Origin: Betaproteobacteria bacterium
Lineage (GTDB): Bacteria > Pseudomonadota > Gammaproteobacteria > Burkholderiales > JAYUZG01
Direction of reading: 5' to 3'
Assembly: GCA_043751985.1 (NCBI GenBank)
Contig: JAYUZG010000010.1
Location: forward strand, 1 to 56,314
Length of the DNA stretch: 56,314 nt
Shown here: one piece after another, positions 1 to 53,159 of the stretch
How positions within the stretch are numbered: position 1 is the stretch's first letter
Layout: each line of letters starts with the position of its first letter
Position numbers and translations under genes: made by a program
The notes under the pieces: model-generated
Database searches by the model: none
Told to the model about the DNA's origin: nothing
The model's input: the letters and a program-made list of their open reading frames with translations, nothing else

Positions 1-1992
1 CGGGCTGATTTTGCCGAGGCTCACAACAACCTGGGCGTGCTGTTACTGGGAATGGAGGCCCCCGATCAGCAACAGGCGATGATTTGTTTCGAACGCGCCG
101 TTGCCAGCCGTGACGATTATCCTGAGGCGCACGTCAATCTCGGCGCCACGCTGGTGGGGTTGGGCCGTATCGATGAAGGGCTGCCGCATTACGAGCGCGC
201 GCTGCAACTGAAGCCTGATTACGCCTATGCCTGGAACAATTTGGGCGCGGTGTACTACCAGTCCGGCCTGACCGAAGAAGCGTGGGTGTGTTTCAACCGT
301 GCCGTCGAGGCCGATCCCGAACTGCCAGAGGGTCATAACAACTTGGGCTTGCTGCACAGTCTGCGCGAGAATCGCGCGGAGGCACGCAAATCGTTTGAGA
401 CGGCGCTGCGCTACCGTGCGGATTTTCCTGAGGCCTACAACGGCCTCGGACTGTGTTTCACCGAAGAAGGTCAGTTTGAACAAGCGGAGCAGGCGTTTCT
501 GAAAGCCTTGGAATTGCACCCCGATTTTGCCGATGCGGCCGCCAATCTGGCAAAAGCCTGCCAGACCGACGGGCAAGTGGATAAAGCGCGTCGCTGGTTC
601 GCGCGCTCGAATGAGTTGTGCCGCAATGACTCTCTGCGGATCAAGCTTGCCGCACTGGTTCCGGCGATCATGGGGACGCAGGCAGAAGTCGAACACTGCC
701 GTGCGGCGGTCGAACGGCAACTGAGAGAGTTGGAACTACAGCCGTTGAGCATTACCGAGCCGGACCTGCTTAAATTCGCCGACACCAATTTCTTCCTCGC
801 CTTCCAGGGCTTCAACGATCGGGACGTTCAAGCCGCAGTCGCAAGACTGTATCTGCGCGCCTGCCCGTCGTTGGGTGCGGTCGCGCCGCATGCGGCGCGT
901 GCGCGCACCGCTGGCGCGCCAGTCAAGCTGGGATTTATTTCGCGGTTTTTCTGGAAACATTCGGTGGGCAACTACATCAGCCCCACCATTGAATGCCTCG
1001 CGCGCGATCCGCGCTTTGATGTCACCTTGATTCACGTGGGGCAGAAACGCGACGAGGTATCGGCGTCACTCGCCGCGGTGGTGCGGCGCGAGCTGACATT
1101 AGGCCCTTTGTCTCTTTCTACTGCGCGCGAACGGGTCGCACAATTGGAGCTGGATGTTCTCGTTTACACCGATATCGGCATGGACCCGTTTACATTCTTC
1201 TTATCTTTCGCACGGCTGGCGCGTCTGCAATGCGTATCCGGCGGGCATCCCGTGACCACCGGCATTCCCAACATGGATGTGTATCTTTCCAGCCGCTATC
1301 TCGAAGGGGAAAACGCGCAAGAACACTACACCGAAAAGCTGTTGCAAATGTCGCACTACAACGCGACCTTGCCGCTTCTCGGCGAACCACGCGTCACCAA
1401 GACACGCGCGCAACTGGGGCTGCCCGAATCGACACCGGCCTATGTTTGCCCAACGAAACTGCAGAAGCTACATCCGGATTTCGATCTCCTGCTGCGTGAT
1501 CTGCTGGCACGCGACCCGCAGGCGACTATCCTGTTGTTCGAAGACGACCGGCACCGCAACTGGCATGCGCAGATTCGGCAGCGATTCCAGCAGACGATTG
1601 GCAAGAACGCCGATCGCGTGCGCTTCCTTCCGTTCGCGGGTGCCGAGGATTTCAGCCAGATACTCGCCGTGGCGGATGTCATCCTCGACCCATTTCATTT
1701 CGGACTCGGCACCACCAGTTTCATGGCCTTTGCCGCCGGTGCGCCGGTGGTTACTTTGCCGTCGCCGTATCTGCGCGGGCGCGCCACGCTCGCGTGCTAT
1801 GGCCAGATGAATTTTCTTGAATGCGTGGCGGAAGATTCCGCGCATTATCTGGAGCTCGCGCTGCGCGTGGCGCAAGACCCAATCTATCGCGCGCATGTCG
1901 TGGCGCAGATTCGAGCGCGCCGCCACGTGCTGTACGACGACGTTCGCTGTGCCGCCGAGATGGGCGATTTCTTCGTGACGGCGCTTGGCTGA
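1..1992 (+). CDS. TPR-repeat / GT41 (SPINDLY, O-GlcNAc-transferase-like) glycosyltransferase, 5'-truncated by window edge; candidate flagellin glycosyltransferase
   Basis: The frame stays open to nt 1; the residues upstream of the listed start (RADFAEAHNNLG) continue the TPR pattern. Several TPR units are visible ('PDYAYAWNNLGAVYYQSG', 'PELPEGHNNLGLLH', 'ADFPEAYNGLGLCF'). The C-terminal ~350 aa resemble the COG3914/GT41 catalytic region ('GFISRFFWKHSVG', 'CVSGGHPVTTGIPNMDVYLSS', 'CPTKLQKLHPDFD'). It lies 2 kb from fliC. Confidence 0.75.
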   Translation, partial: RADFAEAHNNLGVLLLGMEAPDQQQAMICFERAVASRDDYPEAHVNLGATLVGLGRIDEGLPHYERALQLKPDYAYAWNNLGAVYYQSGLTEEAWVCFNRAVEADPELPEGHNNLGLLHSLRENRAEARKSFETALRYRADFPEAYNGLGLCFTEEGQFEQAEQAFLKALELHPDFADAAANLAKACQTDGQVDKARRWFARSNELCRNDSLRIKLAALVPAIMGTQAEVEHCRAAVERQLRELELQPLSITEPDLLKFADTNFFLAFQGFNDRDVQAAVARLYLRACPSLGAVAPHAARARTAGAPVKLGFISRFFWKHSVGNYISPTIECLARDPRFDVTLIHVGQKRDEVSASLAAVVRRELTLGPLSLSTARERVAQLELDVLVYTDIGMDPFTFFLSFARLARLQCVSGGHPVTTGIPNMDVYLSSRYLEGENAQEHYTEKLLQMSHYNATLPLLGEPRVTKTRAQLGLPESTPAYVCPTKLQKLHPDFDLLLRDLLARDPQATILLFEDDRHRNWHAQIRQRFQQTIGKNADRVRFLPFAGAEDFSQILAVADVILDPFHFGLGTTSFMAFAAGAPVVTLPSPYLRGRATLACYGQMNFLECVAEDSAHYLELALRVAQDPIYRAHVVAQIRARRHVLYDDVRCAAEMGDFFVTALG

Positions 1993-2032: not shown

Positions 2033-2686
2033 ATGCAGCCGTACTTCATTCCCTACCCCGGATATTTCCGCTTGTTCGCCGCGTGCGATTTGTTCGTGCT
2101 CTACGACTGCGTGCAATTTTCCCGGCGTGGATGGGTGCATCGCAATCAACTGCCGGGCCATGATGCAGTGGTGCGCTGGTTGACATTGCCGGTGGACAGA
2201 GTGGAGCGTGACGCAGCGATTCACCAGTTGCGTTTCCCAGCCGACGCCGAGCAACGTATGGTGACGCAGTTTCCGCGTTTTCCGGCACTGTCAAACGTGG
2301 CGAAACTGTCACCGGCGTTGCGCACCGCCCTGACGGCATTCAGCGCGACTCCGGTGGAGTATCTCGAGCGTCTGTTGCATGTGTTGTGTGCCGATCTGGG
2401 ATTGCCCTGCAAGACCGTGCGTTCCAGCGCATTGCCCATCGATCCGGCGTTGCGCGGAGCAGCCCGCATCATTGCAATCACACAGCACTTGGGTGCCCGC
2501 GTCTACGTGAACTCTCCGGGTGGGCGAACTCTTTATTCCGCGCAAGCCTTCAGCGAGGCCGGATTGGAGCTACGATTTCTGCCTCCGTATCTGGGCGGCA
2601 GCTTGAGTATTTTGCAGAGCATCGCGGAGCACGGCGCGGATGCAGTAGGGGCGCAGATCCGGGCACAGACCAGCCTGGAAGTGTGA
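2033..2686 (+). CDS. WbqC-family protein (sugar-modification cluster protein of unknown biochemical role)
   Basis: The N-terminus 'IMQPYFIPYPGYFRLFAACDLFVLYDCVQFSRRGWVHRNQL' matches the characteristic WbqC-like (PF08889) opening. ATG at 2033 is preferred over the longer ORF from 1985, so the start is uncertain. Confidence 0.7.
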   Translation: MQPYFIPYPGYFRLFAACDLFVLYDCVQFSRRGWVHRNQLPGHDAVVRWLTLPVDRVERDAAIHQLRFPADAEQRMVTQFPRFPALSNVAKLSPALRTALTAFSATPVEYLERLLHVLCADLGLPCKTVRSSALPIDPALRGAARIIAITQHLGARVYVNSPGGRTLYSAQAFSEAGLELRFLPPYLGGSLSILQSIAEHGADAVGAQIRAQTSLEV

Positions 2687-2703: not shown

Positions 2704-3846
2704 CTACCAGGCGACCGATTCAAGTCGCGCGCGATCTTTCGACAGCAAATCCGCCACCGTGTGACAGACGGTTTCGATATCGGGCTCGGACAAGTCCAGA
2801 TGAAATGGCAAGCCCAGCATGCGCGCGCTTAACTTGTCCACGTTTGGCAGGGGGCCGCATTGTTTGCAGGTACGGAATGCCGGATGTTCGTATAACGGCG
2901 GACAGTACCAACGTCGGGTTTCGATGCCGGCCGCTTCGAGCTGGACCGAGATTTGAATCGCATTCGCACTTGCCGGTAACAGCGTCGGCAGAATGGGATA
3001 GACCCCTTGCCGCGGGCGCTGTTGCAGAGTTAGCTCGGGGCAGAATCGTTGCAATCCCGCCAGGTAGCGATCGGTGAGCGTCAGATAGCGGCGGCGTTGG
3101 TCCGCCCAGTTGTCCAATGACGCCAGGCCGACTGCCGCGTGATACTCGGATAATTTGGCGTTGGTGCCGACCAGATTCACATCGCCGCCCTCGGGATTGA
3201 TTCCGAAATTGCTGAGTTGGCGAACTGTTTCTACGAGCGCGAGATCATTGGACACCAGACACGCACCTTCGCCGCAACCAAGTGCCTTGGTCGCGTGAAA
3301 GCTAAAGATGACCGGCGTGCGATGACCGATCTCCTGATTGCCGAATGCACCGGCGGCATCGATCAACACCGGTATTCCGTAGTCTTCCTGAAACTGATCC
3401 CATGCACTTACATCCTGCGCGCAGCCGAACGCCGCGACCGGCAACACGGCGTCGAACGTTGCAGTCTTGAGCATGGCACGAGCGATGTCCGGTGTGAGTA
3501 ACCAATTGTGTTCATCGATGTCGGATAGCAGCGGGTGATAGCCGGCGCGCAACACCGCGGTTGCGGTGGCGACGAAGGTGGTCGCCGGCAACAGCACGCG
3601 CGCGTCGCTGGGCAAATTCATCGCCGCCAGCGCCAGCTCGAGCGCCAGGGTCGCATTGCAAGTCGTGACTGTCTGCATGCGGCCGATGCCATTGAGCTCG
3701 CGCAGGATACGCGCCTCGAAGCGCTGCACCAGCGGGCCGAAATTGGTATAGCGGCGATTGCTGTCGATTTCACGCAGATATGGAAGCAACTGCTCGATCC
3801 GCGGCAGGCTCGGTACGAGCAGAGGAATTTTTCTGATGACGCTCAT
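2704..3846 (-). CDS. DegT/DnrJ/EryC1/StrS-family PLP-dependent sugar aminotransferase
   Basis: The N-terminus 'IPLLVPSLP...YTNFGPLVQRFE' is typical of the family, and the PLP-lysine motif 'FSFHATKALGCGEGA' is present. Start placed at the internal ATG (MSVIRK...) at 3846. Convergent with the WbqC gene. Confidence 0.85.
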   Translation of the reverse strand: MSVIRKIPLLVPSLPRIEQLLPYLREIDSNRRYTNFGPLVQRFEARILRELNGIGRMQTVTTCNATLALELALAAMNLPSDARVLLPATTFVATATAVLRAGYHPLLSDIDEHNWLLTPDIARAMLKTATFDAVLPVAAFGCAQDVSAWDQFQEDYGIPVLIDAAGAFGNQEIGHRTPVIFSFHATKALGCGEGACLVSNDLALVETVRQLSNFGINPEGGDVNLVGTNAKLSEYHAAVGLASLDNWADQRRRYLTLTDRYLAGLQRFCPELTLQQRPRQGVYPILPTLLPASANAIQISVQLEAAGIETRRWYCPPLYEHPAFRTCKQCGPLPNVDKLSARMLGLPFHLDLSEPDIETVCHTVADLLSKDRARLESVAW

Positions 3847-4091
3847 TTGAACGACTCCACGTGCGGTGATGCAAGGCGTGCGGCACACTTGCGCTTTCAA
3901 GTGAGATCACTAACGGCACGGTCGCCGAATTCTTCATACGTTTGAAACTACGCAGTGACAGTTCATCCGAGCGTTTGCATTTGCGTGAATGAAAATGCGC
4001 GTTCAAGAAAAGTGAGAGTCACTCCGTTACTAGTCTAGACAAGCGGTACTCCGCGCGCGTTTTCCCCTCTGTAGCGCGACTCCTTCGCGGT

Positions 4092-4119
4092 TAAAGAAAA
4101 CCAGCATCTCTGCCGTTAC
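4092..4119 (+). promoter_or_regulatory. Candidate sigma-28 (FliA) class-3 promoter for fliC
   Basis: TAAAGAAA-N12-GCCGTTAC compared with the consensus TAAAGTTT-N11-GCCGATAA. It ends about 70 nt upstream of the fliC ATG. Confidence 0.45.
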
Positions 4120-4189: not shown

Positions 4190-5671
4190 ATGCAAGTCAT
4201 TAACACAAATATCGCTTCGCTAAACGCGCAGCGAAATCTAGGAACGTCACAAGGCTCGGTGCTGCAAGCGTTGCAGCGCTTGTCTTCTGGCCTGCGCATT
4301 AATTCCGCGAAAGACGATGCGGCCGGTCTGGCGATTGCGGCACGGATGACTTCGCAAATTCGCGGTCTGGATCAGGCGCGTCGCAACGCGAATGACGGTA
4401 TTTCGCTGGCGCAAACGGCGGAAGGGGCGCTGGCACAGTCGACGGAAATCCTGCAGCGTGTGCGCGAACTTTCGGTGCAGTCCGCCAATGCAACTAACAG
4501 CACGACCGACCGGGCCGCGCTGAATTCTGAAGTGAATCAGTTAGTGAGCGAACTTACGCGGATCGCCAATACGACGTCGTTTAACGGTCTGAAAGTTCTG
4601 GATGGAACATATCAAGGACAGCAATTCCAAGTGGGCGCGGAAGCCAATCAAACAATTGGCGTGTCGATCACCGGTGCACGTGCGACCGACTTGAAGAACA
4701 ATACGGTTAGCGGCGTCGGTAACGGTGGCAGCGGTCTGGGCGGCGTATCCGCAGCGGCGAATACCGCGCCCGCCGGTAACACGGTTACGGCACAGACACT
4801 GACGGTGTCGGGTTCCGCCGGTTCGGCCACGGTTGGTGTCGCAGCCAACGACCAGGCATCGGTTATTGCTACCGCGGTCAACGCGGTCACTGGTAGCACT
4901 GGGGTCAGGGCGAAAGCGGAAACCAACGCAACCTTGACCAGCATCGCCAATACCGGAACTATTTCTTTCACCTTAAATGGCGGCGGAACCGCGACGCAAA
5001 TCAACGCAACCATCTCGTCAACGACGGACTTGAGCGCCATCGTCGCGGCGACGAACGACGCTTCGTCCAAGACCGGAGTAACGGCAAAACTAAACGCCGC
5101 GGGCGATACGGTGACGTTTACCAATGCGGAAGGCAAGGACATCACCATCCAAGACTTTACTAACTCGGGAACCGGTACCGCGGCCATTGCCGGCGACGCG
5201 GCGTCGTCCAGTATCACGGTCACCAGTGGTACTACCGATTCCGTGCGCGTTACCGGGAAAGTGACGCTCAGCGCCGATTCCGGCTTCACGGTTTCGTCGA
5301 CCGTGGCCAACGGCGTGGTGGTGGGCGCAGCCAACGCGGTGATCGGATCAACCGCGGCGAATGTGTCGAGCATCGATATTTCGCTGGTGAGCGGCGCCAA
5401 TACGGCCATCGATATCGTGGACGCGGCCTTGTCGCAAGTGAACAAGATTCGCGCGCAACTCGGTGCGGTGCAGAACCGTTTTGGCAACACCATCTCGAGT
5501 CTGCAGACGACGTCGGAGAACCTGAGCGCTGCGCGCAGCCGAATCCAGGACACCGACTTTGCCAGCGAAACAGCGCAGTTGACACGTGGACAGATCTTGC
5601 AACAAGCCGGTGTCGCGATGTTGGCGCAGGCGAATGCATTGCCGAACAACGTGTTGACCCTGCTGAGGTAA
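4190..5671 (+). CDS. fliC: Flagellin
   Basis: Canonical N-terminus '[17 protein letters not shown]...[20 protein letters not shown]' and C-terminus 'LGAVQNRF...[26 protein letters not shown]'. AAAGGAG ribosome-binding site upstream. The central domain is Ala/Thr/Ser/Gly-rich. Confidence 0.96.
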
Positions 5672-13428: not shown

Positions 13429-14229
13429 TCAGGCAGCAAGCGTGGGTGGCGGAGGCGCGTTGGCCGACACCGTCAATACGTCGTAGCCGTCATCCGTCAC
13501 CAGGACCGTGTGCTCCCATTGCGCGGACAGACTGTGATCCTTGGTCACCACGGTCCAGCCGTCACCCAGTTGGCGAATGCCCGGCTTGCCCGCATTGATC
13601 ATGGGTTCGATGGTGAAGGTCATGCCCGCCTGCAGACGCAAGCCGGCGCCGCGGCGACCATAGTGCAACACCTGCGGCTCTTCATGGAAGCGGCGCCCGA
13701 TTCCGTGGCCGCAGAATTCGCGCACCACGCTGTAACCATGGTCCTCGGCATACCGTTGGATCACTTCGCCAATGTCGCCCAGGTGCGCGCCGGGTCGAAC
13801 CGCCGCGATGCCACGCCACATGCATTCAAAGGTAACGTCGCACAGGCGCTGCGCTTGAATGGAAGGTGCGCCGACGTAGAACATGCGGCTGGTGTCGCCG
13901 TGGAATTCGTCTTTGATGACGGTGACATCAATGTTCACGACATCGCCCGGTTTCAACACCTTGCCTCCGGGAATTCCGTGACACACGACGTGATTCACCG
14001 AGGTGCAAATGGAGCGCGGGTAGGGCGTGTAGCCGGGCGGCGCGTAGTTCAGTGGCGCGGGGATGGACTGCTGAACATTGAGCATGAAGTCGTGGCACAG
14101 ACGATCCAGCTCATCCGTGGTGACGCCCGGTTTGACTTGGGGCGCGATGAAATCCAGCACTTCGGAAGCGAGGCGCCCGGCGATTCGCATTTTCGCGATC
14201 TCATCCGGGGTCTTGATGGTCACTGACAT
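13429..14229 (-). CDS. map: Type I methionine aminopeptidase
   Basis: 'IKTPDEIAKMRIAGRLASEVLD', 'VCHGIPG', 'GDVVNIDVTV..DEFHGDTS', 'FCGHGIG' and 'FTIEPM' are all classic Map motifs. Start set at the internal ATG (MSVTIK). Confidence 0.95.
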   Translation of the reverse strand: MSVTIKTPDEIAKMRIAGRLASEVLDFIAPQVKPGVTTDELDRLCHDFMLNVQQSIPAPLNYAPPGYTPYPRSICTSVNHVVCHGIPGGKVLKPGDVVNIDVTVIKDEFHGDTSRMFYVGAPSIQAQRLCDVTFECMWRGIAAVRPGAHLGDIGEVIQRYAEDHGYSVVREFCGHGIGRRFHEEPQVLHYGRRGAGLRLQAGMTFTIEPMINAGKPGIRQLGDGWTVVTKDHSLSAQWEHTVLVTDDGYDVLTVSANAPPPPTLAA

Positions 14230-14385
14230 GAGACAAAGTTGGGGGAAAAGGCGCGCAATCATAGCACCCGGCTTGCGGGCCGCCGGTCTACATCCGAGAG
14301 AAAAGTTACCGATAGTAGGGATGGGGAGCGCCTCCCGCTGATTAGATCGAGGCGGCTTCGCCGGAATACCGGAGTTCAGGGAGAT

Positions 14386-15240
14386 ATGAAATTGGCGCAG
14401 ATCGCAGCGATTCGAGACCCGTTACTCAATGCCGCTACCGAATATAAAACGCAAGGATTTTTCATCGCGCGTGGGATTCTTCCCAAAGCGCGCGTCGAAG
14501 CCGTTTTCGCTGACATGCACGGATTGGTCGCGCAGCAATTGCAACACCGCGGATTGCCGATCAGTCGCGCGGAATCCGTCGAGTCGGTGCACCAGGATTT
14601 GCAAGCCTTGTTCAATTGCGATCTCACGGCTTACATTGCGACTTTGACTTTGTGTGCCAAGCTGACTTCTTTGTGGGAGTTGTACCTGCACCCGCAGGTG
14701 CGCGCACAGATCGCGGCAATCGGCATTGTTACCCCAGTCTTTCAGACTGCGCCGGTTTTGCACTTGATGTCACGCGCACTACAGATTCCCAACGGCTATC
14801 ACGGGGTTGGCGTACATCAGGACTGGCCTACTTTGCAGGGCGGTCTAGATACAGTCACGTTGTGGATGCCTTTCGTGGATGTCGATCGAAATCGGTTCAC
14901 TATGGAGGTGATACCGCGCAGCCACCTCGGCGGACTGTACCCTTATGCTCGACGCGAGCATATTTTCGAAGTCGATCCGAACTACTACCGCGAAGATGAT
15001 TTCGTCCCGATCGAGGCATGTTGCGGCGACGTCGTCTTCATGTCCAGTTTTACGCTGCATCGTAGCGGCAACCAAGGTGATGAGCGGTTGCGTCTGGCAA
15101 CCAGCATGCGCTACGAAAACGCCGTGGAACCGCATTTCATTGCGCGCGCCTATCCGTTTGCGCAAAAGCGCAGCGTGATTCCTGACTTGATCACCGCGAA
15201 TTTTCCCTCGCCCGAGCAAGTGCGAGCGGTTTTCGCATAA
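14386..15240 (+). CDS. Fe(II)/2-oxoglutarate dioxygenase, phytanoyl-CoA dioxygenase (PhyH) family
   Basis: H-x-D 'GVHQDWP' and distal His 'FTLHRSG' form a facial triad. PhyH-like N-terminus 'YKTQGFFIARGILP'. ATG at 14386 has GGGAG upstream. Confidence 0.78.
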   Translation: MKLAQIAAIRDPLLNAATEYKTQGFFIARGILPKARVEAVFADMHGLVAQQLQHRGLPISRAESVESVHQDLQALFNCDLTAYIATLTLCAKLTSLWELYLHPQVRAQIAAIGIVTPVFQTAPVLHLMSRALQIPNGYHGVGVHQDWPTLQGGLDTVTLWMPFVDVDRNRFTMEVIPRSHLGGLYPYARREHIFEVDPNYYREDDFVPIEACCGDVVFMSSFTLHRSGNQGDERLRLATSMRYENAVEPHFIARAYPFAQKRSVIPDLITANFPSPEQVRAVFA

Positions 15241-15249
15241 GCGCAGCCG

Positions 15250-16182
15250 ATGGCACGTTGGCGCAAACTGGGCAGAGCGTTTTGCTTACCCACATCCGAT
15301 GAGCGATCTACCACGCACGCGCAGGTACCGACTGTTTTGCTCAAGCCCGACGTAGTGCGGATCTACTTTGCCGCACGCAACCTGCAAGGCAGGAGCTATC
15401 CAGCCTATGTGGACGTGGCACGTGCCGACTTGACTCGGGTGGTTGCGGTCCAGGATCAGCCGGTCATGCCATACGGCAAGCCGGGAGCCTTTGATGACGA
15501 GGGGATCATGCCGGCCTGCATCGTCGAGCGCAACGAAGGCATCTGGATGTACTACAGTGGCTGGAATCGCCGCGTTAGCGTGCCGTATCACAATTCCACG
15601 GGACTGGCGTTAAGTGTCGACGGGGGCAATTCCTTTCAACGAAAGTTTGACGGCCCTTTGTTCGACCGAACACCAGAAGAACCCTATCTCGCAGTGACGC
15701 CCTCGGTCATGTGCGAGAACGATGCGTGGCGCGCCTGGTATATCTCCGGCTTGGGTTGGGAAAAAATTGCAGGCAAGTTCGAACCAGTCTACGTGATCAA
15801 GGCTGCGCACTCGGCAGACGGAATTCATTGGATGCGGCCGAACATTCAATGCATCGAGCAGCGTCACCCCTTGGAAGCGTTCTCTCACCCCACAGTGATC
15901 AAGCACGAGAAAACATATCACATGTGGTATTGCCATCGGCATAGCGAAGACTACCGCGACGGCGGAGGTAGCTACCGCATCGGTTACGCGCGCTCAGACA
16001 ATGGAATCAATTGGCAACGGCATGACGAGGCGGCTGGCATTGCGCCGTCCAGTGACGGGTGGGATTCGACCATGCAATGCTATCCCTACGTCATCCATAT
16101 CGATGGCCAGACTTACATGTTTTACAACGGCAACGGATTCGGCCAGTCAGGAATTGGCGTGGCCATCCTAGATCAATGGTAA
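15250..16182 (+). CDS. Predicted five-bladed beta-propeller protein (GH43/GH32/GH130-superfamily-like), function unknown
   Basis: Repeated blade-like segments with Trp/Tyr-rich strands ('GIWMYYSGWN', 'DAWRAWYISGLGW', 'KTYHMWYCHR', 'YRIGYARSDNGINW', 'GQTYMFYNGNGFGQSGIGVA'). Assignment is by pattern only. Confidence 0.45.
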   Translation: MARWRKLGRAFCLPTSDERSTTHAQVPTVLLKPDVVRIYFAARNLQGRSYPAYVDVARADLTRVVAVQDQPVMPYGKPGAFDDEGIMPACIVERNEGIWMYYSGWNRRVSVPYHNSTGLALSVDGGNSFQRKFDGPLFDRTPEEPYLAVTPSVMCENDAWRAWYISGLGWEKIAGKFEPVYVIKAAHSADGIHWMRPNIQCIEQRHPLEAFSHPTVIKHEKTYHMWYCHRHSEDYRDGGGSYRIGYARSDNGINWQRHDEAAGIAPSSDGWDSTMQCYPYVIHIDGQTYMFYNGNGFGQSGIGVAILDQW

Positions 16183-16216
16183 GCAGTGTAATGGGAATCA
16201 AAGACCTCCACCTATC

Positions 16217-17011
16217 ATGAAAGTCACGCCGATGAAACGTAGTTCAACGCGACAGATCGCGTCGTTCCAGACCGAGACCAGCGCCACGTCGAGTCAACTG
16301 AATGCGCGCGAACAACTGGAGCAGATGTTCCGGGCGTCCCCGTTGCCGTTAGAGGACCTGCTGTTCAACCTGGGAATGTACACGCGCAGCTCCTTGCTGG
16401 TGAAGTTCATCGTGATGCATCAACTCTATGAACGGATTCAAAATATTCCTGGGGCGTTGTTGGAATTTGGTACCTGGTGGGGACAGAACCTAGTCTTGCT
16501 GGAGAACCTGCGCGCGATTCATGAGCCCTTTAACAAGCAGCGCAAGATCATCGGCTTCGATACCTTTTCGGGTTACACCAAAGCATCGGACAAAGACAAG
16601 GCAAGCGAAGTCTGGGCCGAGAATTCTTATTCCACGGCCAAAGGCTATAAAGCTTATCTGGCCGAGTTGCTCCAGGTGCACGAGGGCAACAACGCGTTAG
16701 GGCATATCACCGGTAATCACGGATTGGTGGAAGGGGACGTGGAAAAAACCGCCTCGCAGTATTTCGTCGATCATCCGGAAACCATCGTGGCGTTGGCGTA
16801 TTTCGACATGGGACTGTACCAGCCCACCAAAGCTGCTATGGTGGCGATCAAACCGCACCTCGTCGCCGGCAGCGTCTTGCTGATGGATGAACTGACATGG
16901 GCGGAGTCGCCTGGTGAGGCGATCGCCTTCAAGGAAGTTTTTACGCGCGCTGAGTATGTCATCGAAAAATGCCCGCTGTATCCGTCCAAAGCTATTGTCA
17001 CAATCAAATGA
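16217..17011 (+). CDS. TylF/MycF-like class I SAM-dependent (O-)methyltransferase
   Basis: 'LEFGTWWGQN' (glycine-rich SAM loop), 'GFDTFSGY', and 'VALAYFDMGLYQPTKAAMVAIKPHLVAGSVLLMDEL' parallel the TylF-family layout. Confidence 0.65.
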   Translation: MKVTPMKRSSTRQIASFQTETSATSSQLNAREQLEQMFRASPLPLEDLLFNLGMYTRSSLLVKFIVMHQLYERIQNIPGALLEFGTWWGQNLVLLENLRAIHEPFNKQRKIIGFDTFSGYTKASDKDKASEVWAENSYSTAKGYKAYLAELLQVHEGNNALGHITGNHGLVEGDVEKTASQYFVDHPETIVALAYFDMGLYQPTKAAMVAIKPHLVAGSVLLMDELTWAESPGEAIAFKEVFTRAEYVIEKCPLYPSKAIVTIK

Positions 17012-17841
17012 CCGCCACGCCGGTTACGCTTGGAAAACATTCGCCGCGCGCCGAGTTCGCACCGATCAGCATGGCGCAGTTTGATTGTTTGATGGAGGCC
17101 CGCGGCTGGGTCGTCTTCGAAGCCGCGATCGAGCAAACACTCATCGATCGCATGCTTGAAGACATGCGTCAAGCCTACCGAGTTTGCCGCGAAGTGCAGC
17201 TCAAGAACGGAGTCGCGCGGGACACGGAATACACTGTCCATCATCTGATCGGTTTGGGCCAGAGCTTCTTGGATTTTCTCGAGGTGATGCCGATCAAACC
17301 TTTTATCGAACGCTATTTCGGTGGCAAGTACATTCTCAATTCGTTTGGTGGTGCGATCAATTCCGCGCACAGCCGCTCGTACGCGCATAAAATCCATCGA
17401 GATATCCGCTCATTCTCGGGAAACGCACCGCTGTTGCTCAACACATTGGTGATGTTCGATGCCTTCACCCCACAGAACGGCGCGACTTACTTGATGCCTG
17501 GCGGCCATCGAATGCCGAGCAAACCGAGCACTGCAGAATTTTTTTCTACGGCCCAACAAGCCGTGGGTCCAGCCGGTAGCATTCTGATCTTCAACTCGAA
17601 CTTGTGGCACGCTGGCGGAGAAAATAAAACCGATCATCCGCGGCGTTCAGTCACGCCGATGTTTTGCAAACCTTTCGTCAAACCGCAATTCGACTACCCG
17701 CGTGCGCTCGGCTACGACAAGGCTGATCAATTGTCCCCTGAGCTGCGCCAGATGCTCGGCTATAACTCGCGCATTCCGGCAACGCTGGATGAATGGTATC
17801 AACCATCCGAGCAGAGAATGTATCGGTCAGACCAAGGCTAG
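17008..17841 (+). CDS. Fe(II)/2-oxoglutarate dioxygenase, PhyH family (second copy)
   Basis: H-x-D 'KIHRDI', distal His 'NLWHAGGEN', and 'RRSV' as the 2OG-binding Arg. The ATG overlaps the upstream stop (ATGA), indicating translational coupling. Confidence 0.78.
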   Translation: MTATPVTLGKHSPRAEFAPISMAQFDCLMEARGWVVFEAAIEQTLIDRMLEDMRQAYRVCREVQLKNGVARDTEYTVHHLIGLGQSFLDFLEVMPIKPFIERYFGGKYILNSFGGAINSAHSRSYAHKIHRDIRSFSGNAPLLLNTLVMFDAFTPQNGATYLMPGGHRMPSKPSTAEFFSTAQQAVGPAGSILIFNSNLWHAGGENKTDHPRRSVTPMFCKPFVKPQFDYPRALGYDKADQLSPELRQMLGYNSRIPATLDEWYQPSEQRMYRSDQG

Positions 17842-17846
17842 AACCC

Positions 17847-18596
17847 ATGCGCAATCTGAACGCGGAATTTGCTGATACCGACCAACGTAAGTACGCCTAC
17901 GAGTTTGATTACCTTCTGCGCGACTACATGTGGCAGACCTTCTTGCCATTCTTGAGCGACGGTAGGGCACTCGAAATGGGTTGTTACCAAGGCGAATTCA
18001 CGCGCAAGATTTGCGAGCACTTTGATGACGTCACAGTCATTGAAGGTGCCAGCGAACTCATCGAGCAGGCACGCCTTGCTGTGCGAAAACCGCGAGTGCG
18101 TTTCCTACATGGATATTTCGAAGGCGTTGCGCTAGACGAGCAGTTCGATTCGATCTTTCTCATCCATACGCTGGAGCATCTTGATAATCCGGTGCGGGTG
18201 CTCAAGCGAGTTGACGCTTGGCTTGCGCCTGGCGGGAAGCTGTTCCTGGTGGTGCCGAATGCCAATGCGCCCTCACGCCAAATCGCCGTGAAAATGGGAT
18301 TAATCTCACACAACGCTGCGGTGACCGCGGAAGAAGCAGCCCACGGGCATCGCCGCACCTATTCGCTGGATACCCTGGAACGTGATGCTCGCGCGGGGGG
18401 CCTGTCAATCCATAATCGCGGCGGAATTTTCTTTAAACCCTTTGCCAATATTCAGTTCGACAAGCTGGTGGCGGCAAAGATCATCGACAAAGGGTATCTC
18501 GACGGCTGCCACCAACTGGGGATGAGCTACCCAGATCTATGCGCCAGCATTTACCTAATTTGCGGGAAAGGCGGCAGCAGTTCAAATACCGCGTAG
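17847..18596 (+). CDS. Class I SAM-dependent methyltransferase (Methyltransf_11/23-like)
   Basis: 'ALEMGCYQGEFT' motif I, then 'FDSIFLIHTLEHLDNPVRVLKRVDAWLAPGGKLFLVVPN'. Confidence 0.8.
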   Translation: MRNLNAEFADTDQRKYAYEFDYLLRDYMWQTFLPFLSDGRALEMGCYQGEFTRKICEHFDDVTVIEGASELIEQARLAVRKPRVRFLHGYFEGVALDEQFDSIFLIHTLEHLDNPVRVLKRVDAWLAPGGKLFLVVPNANAPSRQIAVKMGLISHNAAVTAEEAAHGHRRTYSLDTLERDARAGGLSIHNRGGIFFKPFANIQFDKLVAAKIIDKGYLDGCHQLGMSYPDLCASIYLICGKGGSSSNTA

Positions 18597-19247
18597 GCGA
18601 TTGCTCGGAACGCGTGACGCTTCCGCGCCTTGTGCCGCAAAGACCTGAAAATCTCGCGTATCGCTGAGAATCACGCAGCCGGCCCCAATCACGTTGGCCT
18701 TGCCGATCTTGATATTGTCGCGCAGCGTTGCGTTGACTCCGATGAAACTAAATTCACCCACCTCGACCGCACCTGAGATGACGACATGCGACGCGATGAA
18801 GCAATTATCGTGAATTCGGCTGTGGTGTCCGAGATGATTGCCACTCCACATGAACACGTTGTTGCCAATGGTAGCGAAGGGTTGAACCGTGTTGTCTTCC
18901 AAGATGAAGCAATTCTCGCCCACTGACAAATCAGGAAATGTGGTCGCGCGCGGCGACACGTAACTGGCCAAGCGATATCCCAGGCTCTTCATGTGCGCGA
19001 CCTTGGCGGCGCGCAGGCGATTGACCTGCGCATAGCTCACCGCGACAAAAGCATCATGCGTTTCGGGTGAGTAACGCGTCGCGGCTTCGTCGACGGGTAT
19101 GACCGGAAGTCCGAGCAACTCGGGGGCCTTGAGATAGTCGCGGTCAACGGTAAACGCGACGGGGGAATGCGAGCCATCGTGCCGGAACATCGAGCAGGCG
19201 ATTTCCGCGAACTGCCCATTACCAAAGATTACCAGGCCCTTTTTCAT
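18582..19247 (-). CDS. NeuD/PglD-family sugar N-/O-acyltransferase (left-handed beta-helix)
   Basis: Rossmann-like N-terminus 'KGLVIFGNGQFAEIA' followed by hexapeptide repeats ('IGNNVFMWSGNHLGHHSRIHDNCFIASHVVISGAVEVGEFSFIGVNATLRDNIKIG'). The 3' end overlaps the convergent methyltransferase gene by 15 nt. Confidence 0.8.
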   Translation of the reverse strand: MKKGLVIFGNGQFAEIACSMFRHDGSHSPVAFTVDRDYLKAPELLGLPVIPVDEAATRYSPETHDAFVAVSYAQVNRLRAAKVAHMKSLGYRLASYVSPRATTFPDLSVGENCFILEDNTVQPFATIGNNVFMWSGNHLGHHSRIHDNCFIASHVVISGAVEVGEFSFIGVNATLRDNIKIGKANVIGAGCVILSDTRDFQVFAAQGAEASRVPSNRLRGI

Positions 19248-19314: not shown

Positions 19315-19390
19315 TGGCTCCCCGACCTGGACTCGAACCAGGGACCTGCGGATTAACAGTCCGACGCTCTACCGGCTGAGCTATCGGGGA
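19315..19390 (-). tRNA. tRNA-Asn (anticodon GTT), CCA encoded
   Basis: The reverse complement reads UCCCCGA-UA-GCUC-AGCCGGU-AGAGC-G-UCGGA-CUGUUAA-UCCGC-AGGUC-CCUGG-UUCGAGU-CCAGG-UCGGGGA-G-CCA. The cloverleaf folds with one 27:43 mismatch. Length 76 nt. Confidence 0.92.
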
Positions 19391-27875: not shown

Positions 27876-28797
27876 TGATTCGAACTGGGAACGCACGGCG
27901 ATCGAACGCCTGGCGCAAAATGCGCTCACGGAACAACGCAAGTCCCGCCAATGGGGTATTGTTTTCAAACTGCTCACGTTTCTTTATTTGTTCATCGTGC
28001 TGTTTATTTTTCTGGGTTGGTTGGGACGCAAGGACACTGCCTTCTCCGGAGCGCACACCGCCTTGGTGGAACTCAACGGCGTCATTGCCAGCGACGCTCC
28101 GGCGAACGCCGACGACATCGTTAGCGCACTGCAAGAAGCGTTTAAGGACACGCACACCAAGGGCGTTATCCTGCGTATCAACAGCCCAGGCGGCAGCCCA
28201 GTCCAGGCCGGAATTATCAACGATGAGGTGCGCCGCCAACGCGGGTTGCATCCGGATATTCCTCTGTATTCGGTGGTAGAAGATATTTGTGCCTCCGGTG
28301 GATACTACGTAGCCGTCGCCGCGGACCAGATCTACGTCGACAAGGCCAGTCTGGTCGGCTCCATCGGCGTACTGATGGATGGCTTCGGCTTCACCGGCAC
28401 CATGCAGAAACTGGGAGTCGAACGCCGTTTGCTGACCGCGGGAGAAAACAAGGGATTTCTGGATCCCTTCTCACCGACGACCCCAGCGCACCGCGAATAC
28501 GCCAAGCAGATGTTAGGAGAAATCCATCGGCAATTTATCGACGTAGTGAAACGCGGCCGAGGCGACCGGCTCAAACACACCACGACAATTTTCTCCGGTC
28601 TAATTTGGACGGGTGAACGCAGTATCGAGCTGGGTCTCGCCGATGCACTTGGCAGCGTGGACTACGTCGCGCGCGAAGTGATCAAGGCTGAGCACATCGT
28701 GGATTTCACCCCGAAAGAAAATATCGCGCAAAAGCTGGCGCGGAAATTTGGAGCGAGCCTCGGCAGTAGCGTACTGCAAGGCACCGGCATTAGGTAG
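27856..28797 (+). CDS. sppA: Signal peptide peptidase SppA, 36K type (peptidase S49)
   Basis: N-terminal transmembrane segment, then 'GVILRINSPGGSPVQAG', 'ICASGGYYVAVAADQIY' and 'GSIGV'. Confidence 0.85.
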   Translation: MEINPSNDSNWERTAIERLAQNALTEQRKSRQWGIVFKLLTFLYLFIVLFIFLGWLGRKDTAFSGAHTALVELNGVIASDAPANADDIVSALQEAFKDTHTKGVILRINSPGGSPVQAGIINDEVRRQRGLHPDIPLYSVVEDICASGGYYVAVAADQIYVDKASLVGSIGVLMDGFGFTGTMQKLGVERRLLTAGENKGFLDPFSPTTPAHREYAKQMLGEIHRQFIDVVKRGRGDRLKHTTTIFSGLIWTGERSIELGLADALGSVDYVAREVIKAEHIVDFTPKENIAQKLARKFGASLGSSVLQGTGIR

Positions 28798-29503
28798 CGG
28801 CCAGGAGGAGAAATACCGTCGGACGCCGATCCACTTCCATGCGGTGATGGCGCCAATCGCCGATGGTGCGCGTCAGGGTGAATTCGGTCGCGGCAGTCAA
28901 GTCCGTCGCGAGGCACAATGAAGTAGTGGTAGCGCAGCTCGCCAGGATGCTCTCCAGCATGGCGCTATTCCGGTACGGCGCTTCGATGAAGATTTGCGTC
29001 TCCCGATTTCGTTTGGAGCGTTGCTCCAGTTCCTTGAGCTTGGCTTCGCGCTCTGCCGGGCGTTGCGGGAGATAGCCATGAAAGGCGAAGTGCTGGCCGT
29101 CCAAACCGGATGCCATCAGAGCGAGCACGATCGCGGAGGGACCGATCAGCGGCGCGACCTTGATTCCCGTCTTGTGCGCGAGGGCAACCAAGTCCGCCCC
29201 GGGATCTGCCACGCCGGGACATCCCGCTTCCGACATCAGCCCGATGTCCTGCCCAGCCTCCGCGGGCGCAAGCAACGAGGGTAAATCCTTCGGCAGGGAG
29301 TGTTCGTTCAAAACATGAATAGTTGCGTCCTGCAGCGGAAATGCCGCATCGAGTTGGCGCAACCACACGCGCGCGGACTTGGCATTTTCCGCAACGAAGT
29401 GACGTAGCCTGAGCACAAGTTCCCGGGTTCCCGGTGGTGTTTGGGCGCTCGGTAAGTGCGTCGACAATGCGACCGGGACCAGATATAGCGTTCCCTTTTT
29501 CAT
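28790..29503 (-). CDS. Tetrapyrrole-methylase-fold (TP_methylase, RsmI-like) SAM-dependent methyltransferase
   Basis: 'GTLYLVPVAL' start, 'SEAGCPGVADPGADLV' and 'GPSAIVLALMASGL' resemble the RsmI/YraL-type fold. Conserved position next to maf. Confidence 0.7.
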   Translation of the reverse strand: MKKGTLYLVPVALSTHLPSAQTPPGTRELVLRLRHFVAENAKSARVWLRQLDAAFPLQDATIHVLNEHSLPKDLPSLLAPAEAGQDIGLMSEAGCPGVADPGADLVALAHKTGIKVAPLIGPSAIVLALMASGLDGQHFAFHGYLPQRPAEREAKLKELEQRSKRNRETQIFIEAPYRNSAMLESILASCATTTSLCLATDLTAATEFTLTRTIGDWRHHRMEVDRRPTVFLLLAAT

Positions 29504-40370: not shown

Positions 40371-41558
40371 ATGCGAATTCGCGAGTTGAGTAAGTTGTGG
40401 TCTCTGATCTGCGGTTTTGCCGCGATGTTGTTGATCGTCAATGAGGCGCAAGCAGATTCAAACGTAAAAATCGGCTGGCTCACCTCTCTTACCGGCGCGC
40501 TTTCCTCCGCTGCGATCGCGGAGAACCAGGGCGTTCAGTTGGCAGTCGAGGAAATCAACGTGAGCGGCGGCATCCTGGGCCGCAAGATCGAACTGGTCAC
40601 ACGCGACACCGCAGGCGATCCAACCAAAGCCGTCAACTTCGCGCAACAGGTGATTTTCAGCGAGAAGGTCGATGCGATCATCGGTCCGGTTAATTCCGGC
40701 GAAGGTCTGGCGGCCATTCCGATGATTGCACGCAGCGGCATCTTGAATATCGTAATCGGGGCGCTGGACGATCTGGTCAGCCCGGAGAAATTCCCGCGCG
40801 CGTTTCGCGTAATCAATACCAATACACAGTGGATCAACACCGCCAATAACTACGCAGTGAAGACGCTGAAAAAAACCAAAATTGCCTTGATCGGGGACAC
40901 TACCGGTTACGGAACCGCCAGCGCAAAGTCCGCTACGGAGATGCTGGAAAAGCTCGGCGTGAAACCGGTGTACAGCGTTCTGCTCGACCCAAACAAGATC
41001 GATCTTGCGGATGAAATAGCCAAGGCAAAAGCGGCAGGCGCCGACGTTCTCATGCCATGGTCTGCGGCTACGGGTTTGTTAGGTCGCCTGCTCAACGCGC
41101 GTGGCGACATGGGTTGGAAGGTGACGGTGGTCGGCCATCCCGCTCTGATGGCACCGCAAATACGCAAGCTGCTGAATAAACCCGAGTACTGGAATGACAC
41201 CTTTGCGGCCGGCTATTCAAGTACCACCTTCAATGCGGATGGCAAACTGCCACCGAGGACTCAAGCCTTGCTCGACAAGATCCGCCCGAAGCTCGGTGGC
41301 GGCGAAGTCGATGTCATGTTCTGGTGGGTGGCACTTGGCTACGACACAGTGAAGATTATTGAGCACGCGGCCAAGACGGCCGGTTCGTTTGACCAGGCGG
41401 CGATGCAAACAGCGCTCGAAAATACGCGCGAGTACCCAGGCGTCTATGGCACCTACTCCTGGTCCGCCCAACAACGCAATGGCTTTCCCGACATCGGCAT
41501 GACAATGAACGTGGCCAATACCTTCAAGGTCGGCGCGTTCAAAATCGCTCCGCGTTAA
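40371..41558 (+). CDS. ABC transporter periplasmic substrate-binding protein (Leu/Ile/Val-binding-like, Peripla_BP_6)
   Basis: Signal peptide 'LICGFAAMLLIVNEAQA', then 'KIGWLTSLTGALS', 'IIGPVNSG'. ATG at 40371 has GGGGAG upstream. Confidence 0.85.
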   Translation: MRIRELSKLWSLICGFAAMLLIVNEAQADSNVKIGWLTSLTGALSSAAIAENQGVQLAVEEINVSGGILGRKIELVTRDTAGDPTKAVNFAQQVIFSEKVDAIIGPVNSGEGLAAIPMIARSGILNIVIGALDDLVSPEKFPRAFRVINTNTQWINTANNYAVKTLKKTKIALIGDTTGYGTASAKSATEMLEKLGVKPVYSVLLDPNKIDLADEIAKAKAAGADVLMPWSAATGLLGRLLNARGDMGWKVTVVGHPALMAPQIRKLLNKPEYWNDTFAAGYSSTTFNADGKLPPRTQALLDKIRPKLGGGEVDVMFWWVALGYDTVKIIEHAAKTAGSFDQAAMQTALENTREYPGVYGTYSWSAQQRNGFPDIGMTMNVANTFKVGAFKIAPR

Positions 41559-41574
41559 CCGGCCGGCGGTCGAC

Positions 41575-42435: not shown

Positions 42436-42437
42436 AC

Positions 42438-53059: not shown

Positions 53060-53159
53060 CGGGAATCTGATTCACACTGAATGACAGGCATCTTCTTTGC
53101 GATTACCTGCTCGAACGGATGGTGTCGTACCGCCGGACCCCGAGCAGAGTCAAAGGAGC

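Follow-up and report, generated by a model that had tools for sequence, protein, structure and literature searches.

A hydroxylase and methyltransferase cassette near the flagellar genes of a betaproteobacterium is probably the detached half of a flagellin O-glycosylation island

The 56,314-nt contig JAYUZG010000010.1 of a betaproteobacterium (assembly GCA_043751985.1), which we refer to as a whole as the window, carries at 14386-19247 a cassette of six genes. These encode two candidate Fe(II)/2-oxoglutarate dioxygenases, two methyltransferases, a β-propeller protein and a NeuD-type acyltransferase, and lie between map and a tRNA-Asn gene. We consider it probable, at roughly 0.7, that the cassette has become detached from a flagellin O-glycosylation island and makes up one half of it; the biochemistry of the island is predicted here from sequence. 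The genes of the cassette, its two neighbours and its presumed partners around fliC are as follows:

14386-15240, forward strand: PhyH1 (Pfam PhyH, 50.2 bits)
15250-16182, forward strand: propeller, a five-bladed β-propeller of an uncharacterised family, distantly GH130/GH43-like
16217-17011, forward strand: TylF-like O-methyltransferase (Pfam TylF, 27.4 bits)
17008-17841, forward strand: PhyH2 (Pfam PhyH, 63.2 bits)
17847-18596, forward strand: class I S-adenosylmethionine-dependent methyltransferase (Pfam Methyltransf_23)
18582-19247, reverse strand: NeuD/PglB/VioB-type sugar N-acyltransferase (TIGR03570, 170.7 bits)
13429-14262, reverse strand: map, the neighbour on one side
19315-19390, reverse strand: tRNA-Asn(GUU), found by ARAGORN and Rfam, the boundary on the other side
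37-1992, forward strand: GT41 glycosyltransferase with N-terminal TPR repeats (GT41-TPR; Pfam Glyco_transf_41 and many TPR families)
2033-2686, forward strand: WbqC-family protein (Pfam WbqC, E = 3.9e-34)
2704-3900, reverse strand: DegT/DnrJ/EryC1-type sugar aminotransferase, DesI-like (Pfam E = 4e-66)
4190-5671, forward strand: FliC flagellin (Pfam Flagellin_N, Flagellin_C and Flagellin_IN)

Gene calls bear out the layout given in the original prediction, with five co-directional genes and a convergent one between map and tRNA-Asn. The packing is indeed tight: 9 nt separate PhyH1 from the propeller gene, 34 nt the propeller gene from TylF and 5 nt PhyH2 from the methyltransferase gene, and the TylF stop codon overlaps the PhyH2 start in a single ATGA at 17008-17011 (-4 nt). 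The methyltransferase and NeuD genes converge, their 3′ ends overlapping by 15 nt. Since independent gene calls on at least five metagenome assemblies place the six genes identically, the arrangement is not a chimera or an assembly artefact. The nearest flagellar gene, which is flhB-like, ends at about 10857, leaving the gap of about 3.5 kb noted before. The GT41-TPR, WbqC and DegT genes, which the original prediction had placed beyond the flagellar block, do lie on the other side of fliC from the cassette, with the Pfam matches listed above. It was also correct in stating that the cassette has no glycosyltransferase and the window no nucleotide-sugar synthase or dehydratase: no canonical glycosyltransferase is encoded in the cassette, and no second glycosyltransferase besides GT41 in the window.

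The two PhyH proteins clear the PF05721 cut-off of 22 bits by a wide margin and possess the intact H-x-D...H triads ascribed to them. The iron motif reads H144-x-D146...H225...R236 in PhyH1 and H130-x-D132...H201...R212 in PhyH2, and is at least 95% conserved among 51 and 34 homologues, respectively. The metal motif is of the H-x-D type, not the halogenase form H-x-A/G, and the 2-oxoglutarate-binding arginine is conserved. By these features PhyH1 and PhyH2 are generic members of the PhyH family of Fe(II)/2-oxoglutarate dioxygenases. The best PDB matches of the PhyH1 profile are PhyH, SnoK, PtlH and SnoN, and this search returned generic PhyH-family matches only, indicating no sub-family; the best PDB match of PhyH2 is DhiD (8zyb, 2.8e-10). 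Taken together, the nearest solved relatives of the two proteins are human PhyH, SnoK/SnoN, PtlH, DhiD and fungal meroterpenoid oxygenases.

Both methyltransferase assignments, TylF-like and class I, hold as well, through Pfam TylF (27.4 bits against a cut-off of 23) and Methyltransf_23. Over residues 29-250 the TylF-like protein matches CalS11 (PDB 4gf5/3tos; E = 3.4e-54, 187 bits), which places it in the TylF/CalS11 family and, judging by the strength of the match, makes it a close relative of this TDP-rhamnose 3′-O-methyltransferase. Because of its closeness to a TDP-sugar methyltransferase, tailoring probably takes place at the nucleotide-sugar stage. The class I methyltransferase matches PDB 2p7h/2p7i with E = 5.3e-84. 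2P7I is ECA1738 of Pectobacterium atrosepticum, a structural-genomics protein (PMC7107822), and at this similarity the window enzyme appears to be its orthologue.

The propeller had been described as unassigned. Its fold can be assigned, to the five-bladed propellers of the GH130/GH43/GH32/GH137-like kind. The protein has no signal peptide, its AlphaFold2 model has a mean predicted local distance difference test score (pLDDT) of 90.7, and Foldseek matches it to GH137, GH43, GH32 and GH130 structures at template-modelling (TM) scores of 0.6-0.72 and identities of at most 18%. We rejected the possibility that it is a GH130 glycoside phosphorylase, with which it has the fold alone in common. The Pfam GH130 match (27.9 bits against a cut-off of 26) spans only 55 residues (241-297), NCBIfam scores fall far under their cut-offs (39 versus 450 bits), and the sequence similarity to 1,2-β-oligomannan and mannobiose phosphorylases is weak and local. 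The catalytic residues of GH130 could not be located in the propeller, since the profile alignments with 9fj8 and 7fip are partial and blade-shifted, with the 'EDP' catalytic position opposite C-Y-P.

The propeller family is large, comprising 1,266 clusters (50% identity) at E ≤ 1e-30 and more than 1,600 close homologues. It is also the most conserved protein of the set, with 45-74% identity across phyla versus 21-43% for GT41; between Burkholderiales and Bacteroidota, propellers are 45-51% identical and the DegT and WbqC proteins 25-34%. Invariant residues of the propeller include D82, D83, E144, E178 and D272, together with a cluster of arginines. This conservation favours a small-molecule substrate. 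Our best guess, held with low confidence, is that the propeller acts on an invariant nucleotide-sugar or sugar-phosphate intermediate, and is not a glycosyltransferase working on a variable acceptor. A phosphorylase-like role in glycosyl transfer is also conceivable, GH130-type mannosyltransferase-phosphorylases of Leishmania being a precedent. The propeller profile additionally matches four giant proteins, P0243, P0268, P0299 and P0288 (5,844, 1,935, 2,300 and 901 aa), in 38, 12, 15 and 11 stretches, respectively; they look like long arrays of blade-like or propeller-like repeats.

For the acyltransferase, the proposed NeuD-type hexapeptide assignment stands: the protein scores above the curated cut-off of TIGR03570 (170.7 versus 160.8 bits) and just above that of PglD_N (23.7 versus 23.4), with 63.9 bits for Hexapep, and its best PDB relatives are the perosamine N-acetyltransferase PerB, PglB and VioB. 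DegT matches PDB 3ju7 (7e-44) and DesI (2po3; 1e-38), the latter being the dTDP-4-keto-6-deoxyglucose 4-aminotransferase. Its true start is probably the ATG at 3846 and not the TTG that opens the reading frame. The window thus encodes candidate parts of a possible dTDP-viosamine-type pathway, namely a DesI-like aminotransferase, a PerB/PglB/VioB-like acyltransferase and a TDP-sugar-type methyltransferase, without rmlA or rmlB. The WbqC reading frame may open at 1985; the database form has 217 aa (P0121, 100% identical). WbqC has no sequence relative in the PDB, and despite a model pLDDT of 89.5 its best Foldseek match has E = 0.12 and a TM score below 0.3. As a fold and as an enzyme family, PF08889 appears to have no member that has been solved or characterised. 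Other wbqC genes are annotated as coding for a putative glycine transferase, which is an annotation and not an assay; the literature we searched likewise yielded annotations of WbqC and no assay.

To see which of these genes travel together, we collected 80 loci around propeller homologues and searched them with all window proteins; about 90 related loci, cited below by L numbers, were examined in all. Co-occurrence was counted in the 53 non-redundant loci whose flanks extend for 6 kb or more on either side. The propeller is accompanied by DegT in 51 of the 53, by NeuD, usually directly upstream, in 50 and by WbqC in 45. The other four genes come in pairs. TylF and PhyH1 are both present in 32 loci and both absent from 19, only two loci having one without the other; PhyH2 occurs with the class I methyltransferase in 25, neither is found in 28, and no locus has just one of them. 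The second pair never occurs without the first, so that the two pairs are strictly nested add-ons. In Bacteroidota, the core is found in 14 of 14 loci and the four tailoring genes in none of the 14. Gene orders tell the same story: NeuD-Prop in 21 loci, NeuD-Prop-TylF-PhyH1 in six and NeuD-Prop-TylF-PhyH2-MT-PhyH1 in 18 (Prop, propeller; MT, class I methyltransferase). Judging by these orders, the PhyH2-methyltransferase unit is inserted within the first unit, between TylF and PhyH1.

These distributions suggest a system consisting of a four-gene core (DegT, WbqC, NeuD and propeller) and two nested hydroxylase-methyltransferase units, apparently added in Proteobacteria. The window cassette would then comprise half of the core (NeuD and propeller) together with both add-on units. 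The term "tailoring cassette" used for it in the original prediction does not cover the whole of it: NeuD and the propeller belong to the core, which is itself split over two sites. The tailoring had also been thought unusual. Present in 32 of the 53 loci, the set is unstudied rather than rare.

The add-on units also differ from the core in the company they keep. In an iterative hidden Markov model (HMM) search, GT41-like genes were found within 10 kb in 20 of the 32 loci with tailoring genes versus one of the 19 without (Fisher p = 7e-5), which argues that the tailoring units belong to protein glycosylation and not to polysaccharides. In some loci the cassette is surrounded by three or four paralogous GT41/HMW1C_N-TPR genes (L006 and L009/L010), with motAB nearby in L006 and with a Methyltransf_13/14 C-methyltransferase-like gene, a GFO/IDH/MocA oxidoreductase and a GT2 gene in L009/L010, so that the island may have larger forms with several transferases. 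In L039 (14062-15777) and L093, which lack GT41, the module is followed instead by a gene for a GT61-family glycosyltransferase with TPR repeats, which in Roseobacteraceae may take over the transfer of the same sugar to protein.

Two kinds of loci show the parts in other combinations. In Methylobacterium bullatum (L096; NZ_LR743510.1, 1542699-1561439) the order is GT41-DegT-WbqC-PhyH2-like-methyltransferase, followed after a gap by a second methyltransferase copy, and neither propeller nor NeuD was detected; therefore, the DegT/WbqC/PhyH2/methyltransferase part can exist without the NeuD/propeller part. Plasmids of Rhizobium leguminosarum, Tateyamaria omphalii and Rhizobium sp. CIAT894 (L092, L093 and L097, respectively) have a remoter variant of the module, DegT-WbqC-propeller-propeller-GNAT acetyltransferase-ECA1738-like methyltransferase-glycosyltransferase, without NeuD, TylF or PhyH. 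Their propellers are tandem paralogues about 40% identical to that of the window; one is annotated as 'exo-alpha-sialidase' and the rest as 'glycosylase' or 'hypothetical'.

The most direct connection to flagellin comes from relatives in which nothing is split. In the Burkholderiales loci L014, L015/L094 and L017-L019, orthologues of all nine genes form a contiguous block just upstream of fliC, in the order GT41-TPR(s)-DegT-NeuD-Prop-TylF-PhyH-MT-PhyH-(GT41)-WbqC-fliC-flaG-fliD. L036 has the same fliC-contiguous block in a one-pair form lacking PhyH2 and the class I methyltransferase. FliC of the window is 70-74% identical to FliC of loci with such a contiguous island. In the window itself, GT41-TPR at 37-1992 would supply the glycosyltransferase of a flagellin glycosylation island. 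As to location, the cassette stands 3.5 kb off, behind glnD and map, and its partners GT41, WbqC and DegT flank fliC. GT41-TPR is presumed to be the flagellin O-glycosyltransferase, with FliC as the glycan acceptor. In this way we infer, from comparative genomics, what the original prediction had proposed, that the cassette and the DegT, WbqC and GT41 genes are two halves of one flagellin or surface glycan pathway.

Promoter-like motifs are in keeping with a flagellar connection. Three sites resembling sigma-28 (FliA) promoters concern us here:

3911-3936, reverse strand: sigma-28-like motif upstream of DegT, TGAAGAATTCGGCGACCGTGCCGTTA (TGAA-N15-GCCGTTA)
4092-4118, forward strand: sigma-28-like promoter motif of fliC, the reference site, TAAAGAAAACCAGCATCTCTGCCGTTA, 72 nt before the fliC ATG
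14289-14314, forward strand: weak sigma-28-like motif between map and PhyH1, TACATCCGAGAGAAAAGTTACCGATA, 72 nt before the PhyH1 ATG

The DegT motif lies 11 nt before the TTG that opens the reading frame, the ATG at 3846 being 65 nt downstream of the motif, and its GCCGTTA -10 element recurs upstream of fliC and fliD in relatives (TAAAG...GCCGTTA); DegT may therefore be a late flagellar gene, as far as its upstream sequence tells. The fliC and PhyH1 motifs have identical 72-nt spacing to the ATG. A relaxed pattern (T-N-N-A, 15-16 nt, RCCGWTA), which was partly defined from these very sites and is to that extent circular, is matched seven times in the window, where 2.0 ± 1.5 matches would be expected; four of these matches precede fliC, fliD, DegT and PhyH1 by 11-72 nt. 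As evidence for sigma-28 co-regulation of the cassette, the motifs are only suggestive.

How the two halves came to be apart is reflected less in base composition than in ancestry. The original prediction called the cassette low in G+C, which is overstated: the whole region has 55.0% versus 58.5% for the window (3.5 points lower). It is the lowest-G+C stretch of 4.86 kb in the window (0.4th percentile; per-gene Mann-Whitney p = 1e-4). However, the G+C of third codon positions (GC3) is 0.653 versus 0.676 (p = 0.08), the difference residing mostly in codon positions 1 and 2. Since GC3 barely differs, the dip reflects mostly amino-acid composition and not foreign codon usage. The five 60-nt spot counts on which the earlier statement rested can be reproduced exactly (0.483, 0.433, 0.45, 0.667 and 0.767), but they do not represent the region. 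A strongly deviant composition is thus rejected, the 43-48% having come from unrepresentative lines. We also rejected the notion of tRNA-Asn as the integration site of a tRNA-targeted island: the window has no integrase reading frame, and no direct repeats of the tRNA 3′ end flank the cassette, only short repeats at chance level being present. A search for an empty site found the map/glnD/aspC/uvrB flanks in none of 90 related loci, and in none of the other loci examined (90) does the cassette lie between map and tRNA-Asn.

As a sign of horizontal origin the G+C content is weak; a better one is that the cassette and the genes beside fliC differ in their nearest relatives. The six proteins encoded by the cassette are 60-79% identical to those of L012/L013, the closest locus for five of the six (PhyH1 is slightly nearer to L045, at 66%), and 10-23 points less similar to those of the fliC-adjacent islands (L014-L019 and L036). 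GT41, WbqC and DegT, in contrast, have 30-34% identity to L012/L013 versus about 40-48% to the fliC-adjacent islands; for GT41-TPR, identity to its counterparts in those islands is 39-43%. The gene order in L012, with strands, is PhyH1+ Prop+ NeuD+ MT- PhyH2- TylF- WbqC- DegT-; the window order seems to correspond to this arrangement with the NeuD-to-TylF block inverted and without the WbqC and DegT of that lineage. Such a mosaic of relatives is better evidence than G+C that the cassette has an ancestry of its own. The island would thus be split over housekeeping genes and assembled from parts of different ancestry.

Sugar islands set apart from the transferase genes are known. In Pseudomonas syringae pv. 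tabaci, fgt1 and fgt2 are complemented by a separate 'viosamine island' (vioA, vioB, vioT, vioR, vioS and vioM). The likeness extends from the sugar genes forming a distinct island to DegT-type vioA, NeuD/VioB-type vioB and the methyltransferase vioM, and the product is a methylated N-acylated 4-amino-4,6-dideoxyhexose on flagellin. However, the acyl chain is supplied there through FabG/FabH-like vioR and vioS and an acyl carrier protein, and that system has not been described with PhyH dioxygenases, WbqC or a propeller, whereas the window pathway is predicted to rely on two Fe/2-oxoglutarate dioxygenases and on transfer by GT41-TPR. Dickeya dadantii 3937, Acidovorax avenae K1 (Fgt, Fmt, Fcs and Fst) and Burkholderia cenocepacia (FlmQ) have a GT41 or predicted flagellin glycosyltransferase beside fliC; in D. 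dadantii these GT41-type genes are required for flagellin glycosylation (PMC6637903). Those islands share with the window a sugar transaminase and a methyltransferase, and their mutants lose flagellin mass or virulence. Unlike the window, they encode a carbamoyl-phosphate-synthase-like (ATP-grasp) protein and an oxidoreductase but not WbqC, the propeller, NeuD or the two PhyH proteins, and they directly adjoin fliC. In the seven-gene islands of Dickeya zeae WH1 and Pectobacterium atrosepticum SCRI1043, the interval between fliA and fliC contains a class I methyltransferase gene together with WbqC, DegT and a 'glycosylase'; that of P. atrosepticum has been reported as a seven-gene flagellin island. 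ECA1738 presumably lies within the latter. However, no PhyH or TylF gene is annotated in these seven-gene islands.

Other comparisons concern single components. In the O-antigen cluster of Shewanella oneidensis MR-1, wbqC adjoins a dTDP-Qui4N enzyme and rfbB, though in a polysaccharide and not a protein-glycan context. The trio aminotransferase-WbqC-acetyltransferase of WbqC O-antigen clusters would parallel DegT-WbqC-NeuD. WbqC-containing clusters also occur in E. coli O121 and Shigella dysenteriae 7, where the O unit contains 4-(N-acetylglycyl)amino-4,6-dideoxyglucose; a DNA-level search of an E. coli genome collection for homologues of the O121 wbqC cluster gave no match. CalS11 methylates a sugar nucleotide before glycosyl transfer in calicheamicin synthesis, but this is an actinomycete natural-product pathway. 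Rhamnose itself is unlikely to be the substrate of the window enzyme. Similarly, GH130 β-mannoside phosphorylases and the GH43, GH32, GH117 and GH137 propeller glycosidases share the fold of the window propeller, but its genomic context is biosynthetic and cytoplasmic, not catabolic.

From these comparisons a pathway can be proposed. It would start from a nucleotide-activated 4-keto-6-deoxyhexose, most likely dTDP-4-keto-6-deoxyglucose, made by rml gene products encoded outside the window. The DegT next to fliC, which is DesI-like, would aminate it to a 4-amino sugar, which the NeuD/VioB-type acyltransferase would N-acylate; WbqC and the propeller would carry out two further processing steps of the core, which many phyla also put to use for polysaccharides. 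The two add-on pairs, PhyH1 plus the CalS11-like O-methyltransferase and PhyH2 plus the ECA1738-like enzyme, would then hydroxylate and methylate this nucleotide sugar before its transfer, probably leaving methoxy groups on the sugar itself or the N-acyl chain. Finally, GT41-TPR would move the finished sugar onto serine or threonine residues of FliC.

The simplest rule for the two pairs would be that each hydroxylase makes the hydroxyl group which its partner methylates. This fits the nested pairs, and in the propeller-anchored set it holds strictly; as a strict rule we had to reject it, since it is contradicted by the Rhizobium and Tateyamaria plasmids, and it is weakened as an idea. C-H hydroxylation followed by O-methylation is known from antibiotic sugars (SnoK/SnoN and the orthosomycin oxygenases). 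To our knowledge, such chemistry is so far not known from protein-glycan precursors, and our literature search returned no paper that treats phytanoyl-CoA dioxygenase together with flagellin glycosylation or DegT. We tentatively raise a broader proposal, which we regard as possible though on balance doubtful. The core would be an undescribed nucleotide-sugar pathway with two enzyme families of unknown chemistry, WbqC and the biosynthetic, cytoplasmic GH130/GH43-like propeller. PhyH enzymes would hydroxylate C-H positions of the nucleotide sugar or its N-acyl chain prior to O-methylation, and the product would be a new family of methoxylated amino-deoxy sugars on the flagella of many Proteobacteria.

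Several observations weigh against a flagellin pathway of this kind. Between the cassette and the flagellar genes lie glnD and map, and the window lacks any gene for a nucleotidyltransferase or dehydratase, rmlA and rmlB included. In nine of the 25 loci with both add-on units there is no GT41 or flagellin gene within 10 kb; one of the nine, L039 of Roseobacter sp. EG26, has GT61-TPR genes instead. The Rhizobium and Tateyamaria loci have an ECA1738-like methyltransferase without PhyH2, which weakens the hydroxylate-then-methylate logic. Of the four sigma-28-like sites, that of PhyH1 is the weakest, the relaxed pattern was partly fitted after the fact, and the canonical sigma-28 consensus with three mismatches is not enriched in the window (32 matches versus 28.6 expected). 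The core, moreover, occurs in polysaccharide loci of non-flagellated Bacteroidota, so that a role in surface polysaccharides is possible in principle. In Flavobacterium it lies inside an ABC-transporter-dependent polysaccharide locus with Wzm/Wzt-like genes, FkbM and three GT2 genes. Together with the presence of the core in all 14 Bacteroidota loci, the O-antigen annotation of wbqC in Shewanella and the 3.5 kb to the nearest flagellar gene, this makes it conceivable that the cassette serves lipopolysaccharide O-antigen, capsule or another surface polysaccharide and that its proximity to flagellar genes is coincidental. We nevertheless consider this unlikely, because none of the four hydroxylase and methyltransferase genes occurs in any Bacteroidota locus, and the GT41 link is found on the side of the tailoring genes. 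In addition, the window has DegT and WbqC partners nowhere but around fliC, and it has no wzx, wzy, wzm, wzt or polysaccharide glycosyltransferase.

Only a little less probable than a polysaccharide role is that the sugar is made as proposed but that GT41-TPR attaches it to another protein, such as an adhesin or pilin, in HMW1C-like general glycosylation. Related loci have up to four GT41/HMW1C_N paralogues, and many two-unit loci have GT41 but no flagellin gene within 10 kb; the single GT41 of the window, however, lies 2.2 kb from fliC, in the same position as in contiguous fliC islands, and sigma-28-like motifs are present. It would also agree with the restriction of the tailoring genes to protein-glycosylation contexts if the PhyH proteins and/or the methyltransferases modified the flagellin polypeptide instead of the sugar, producing hydroxylated residues or methyl-lysines, and lysine methylation of flagellin by FliB is known in enterobacteria. 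The closeness of the TylF-like enzyme to a TDP-sugar methyltransferase (E = 3e-54) and the interleaving of tailoring and sugar-pathway genes in one operon make this improbable. Least credible of all, in our estimate, is a fragment of a pathway tailoring a glycosylated natural product. Although the best solved relatives of three proteins (CalS11, DesI and SnoK/SnoN) come from such pathways, neither the window nor the examined neighbourhoods of the approximately 90 related loci contain polyketide synthase, nonribosomal peptide synthetase, terpene or aglycone genes, those neighbourhoods being flagellar, GT41 or polysaccharide in character. A detached half of a flagellin O-glycosylation island thus remains our preferred explanation.

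The remainder of the window is housekeeping in nature: glnD, map, an aspC-like gene, uvrB, rne, rluC, a plsX-fabHDG-fabF cluster, mltG, tmk, holB, tatD, a liv-type ABC transporter and genes of acyl-CoA metabolism. In an Rfam scan of the window, tRNA-Asn was the sole match. Two reading frames, 28790-29503 on the reverse strand, between a peptidase S49 gene and maf, and 53097-53825 on the forward strand (237 and 242 aa), have no Pfam match at E ≤ 0.001. A strongly negative AT skew (-0.19 to -0.29) at 41500-43500 extends across two branched-chain amino-acid permease genes and presumably reflects the T-rich codon bias of membrane proteins.

Overall, the locus would belong to a known kind: flagellin glycosylation islands that combine a GT41 transferase with a sugar aminotransferase, an acyltransferase and methyltransferases have been described before. 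In the literature we searched, four of its features are undescribed: the DegT-WbqC-acyltransferase-propeller core, PhyH-type dioxygenases in such a pathway, the nested modular architecture, and the split, mosaic arrangement. It overturns no principle; it raises concrete biochemical questions. For annotation, the lesson is that the parts of a glycosylation island may lie apart, with housekeeping genes between them, and differ in ancestry. The nested series of core, one unit and two units constitutes a ready-made experimental series for assigning each enzyme, and carriers that are cultured or have complete genomes include P. atrosepticum SCRI1043, Roseobacter sp. EG26, R. leguminosarum and Betaproteobacteria bacterium UKL13-2 (complete genome). 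Flagellin glycans shape motility, virulence and immune recognition by plants and animals, and little is known about how they are made except for the nonulosonic-acid and viosamine systems. The locus points to a modular and very widespread sugar pathway, with optional units specific to protein-glycosylation contexts.

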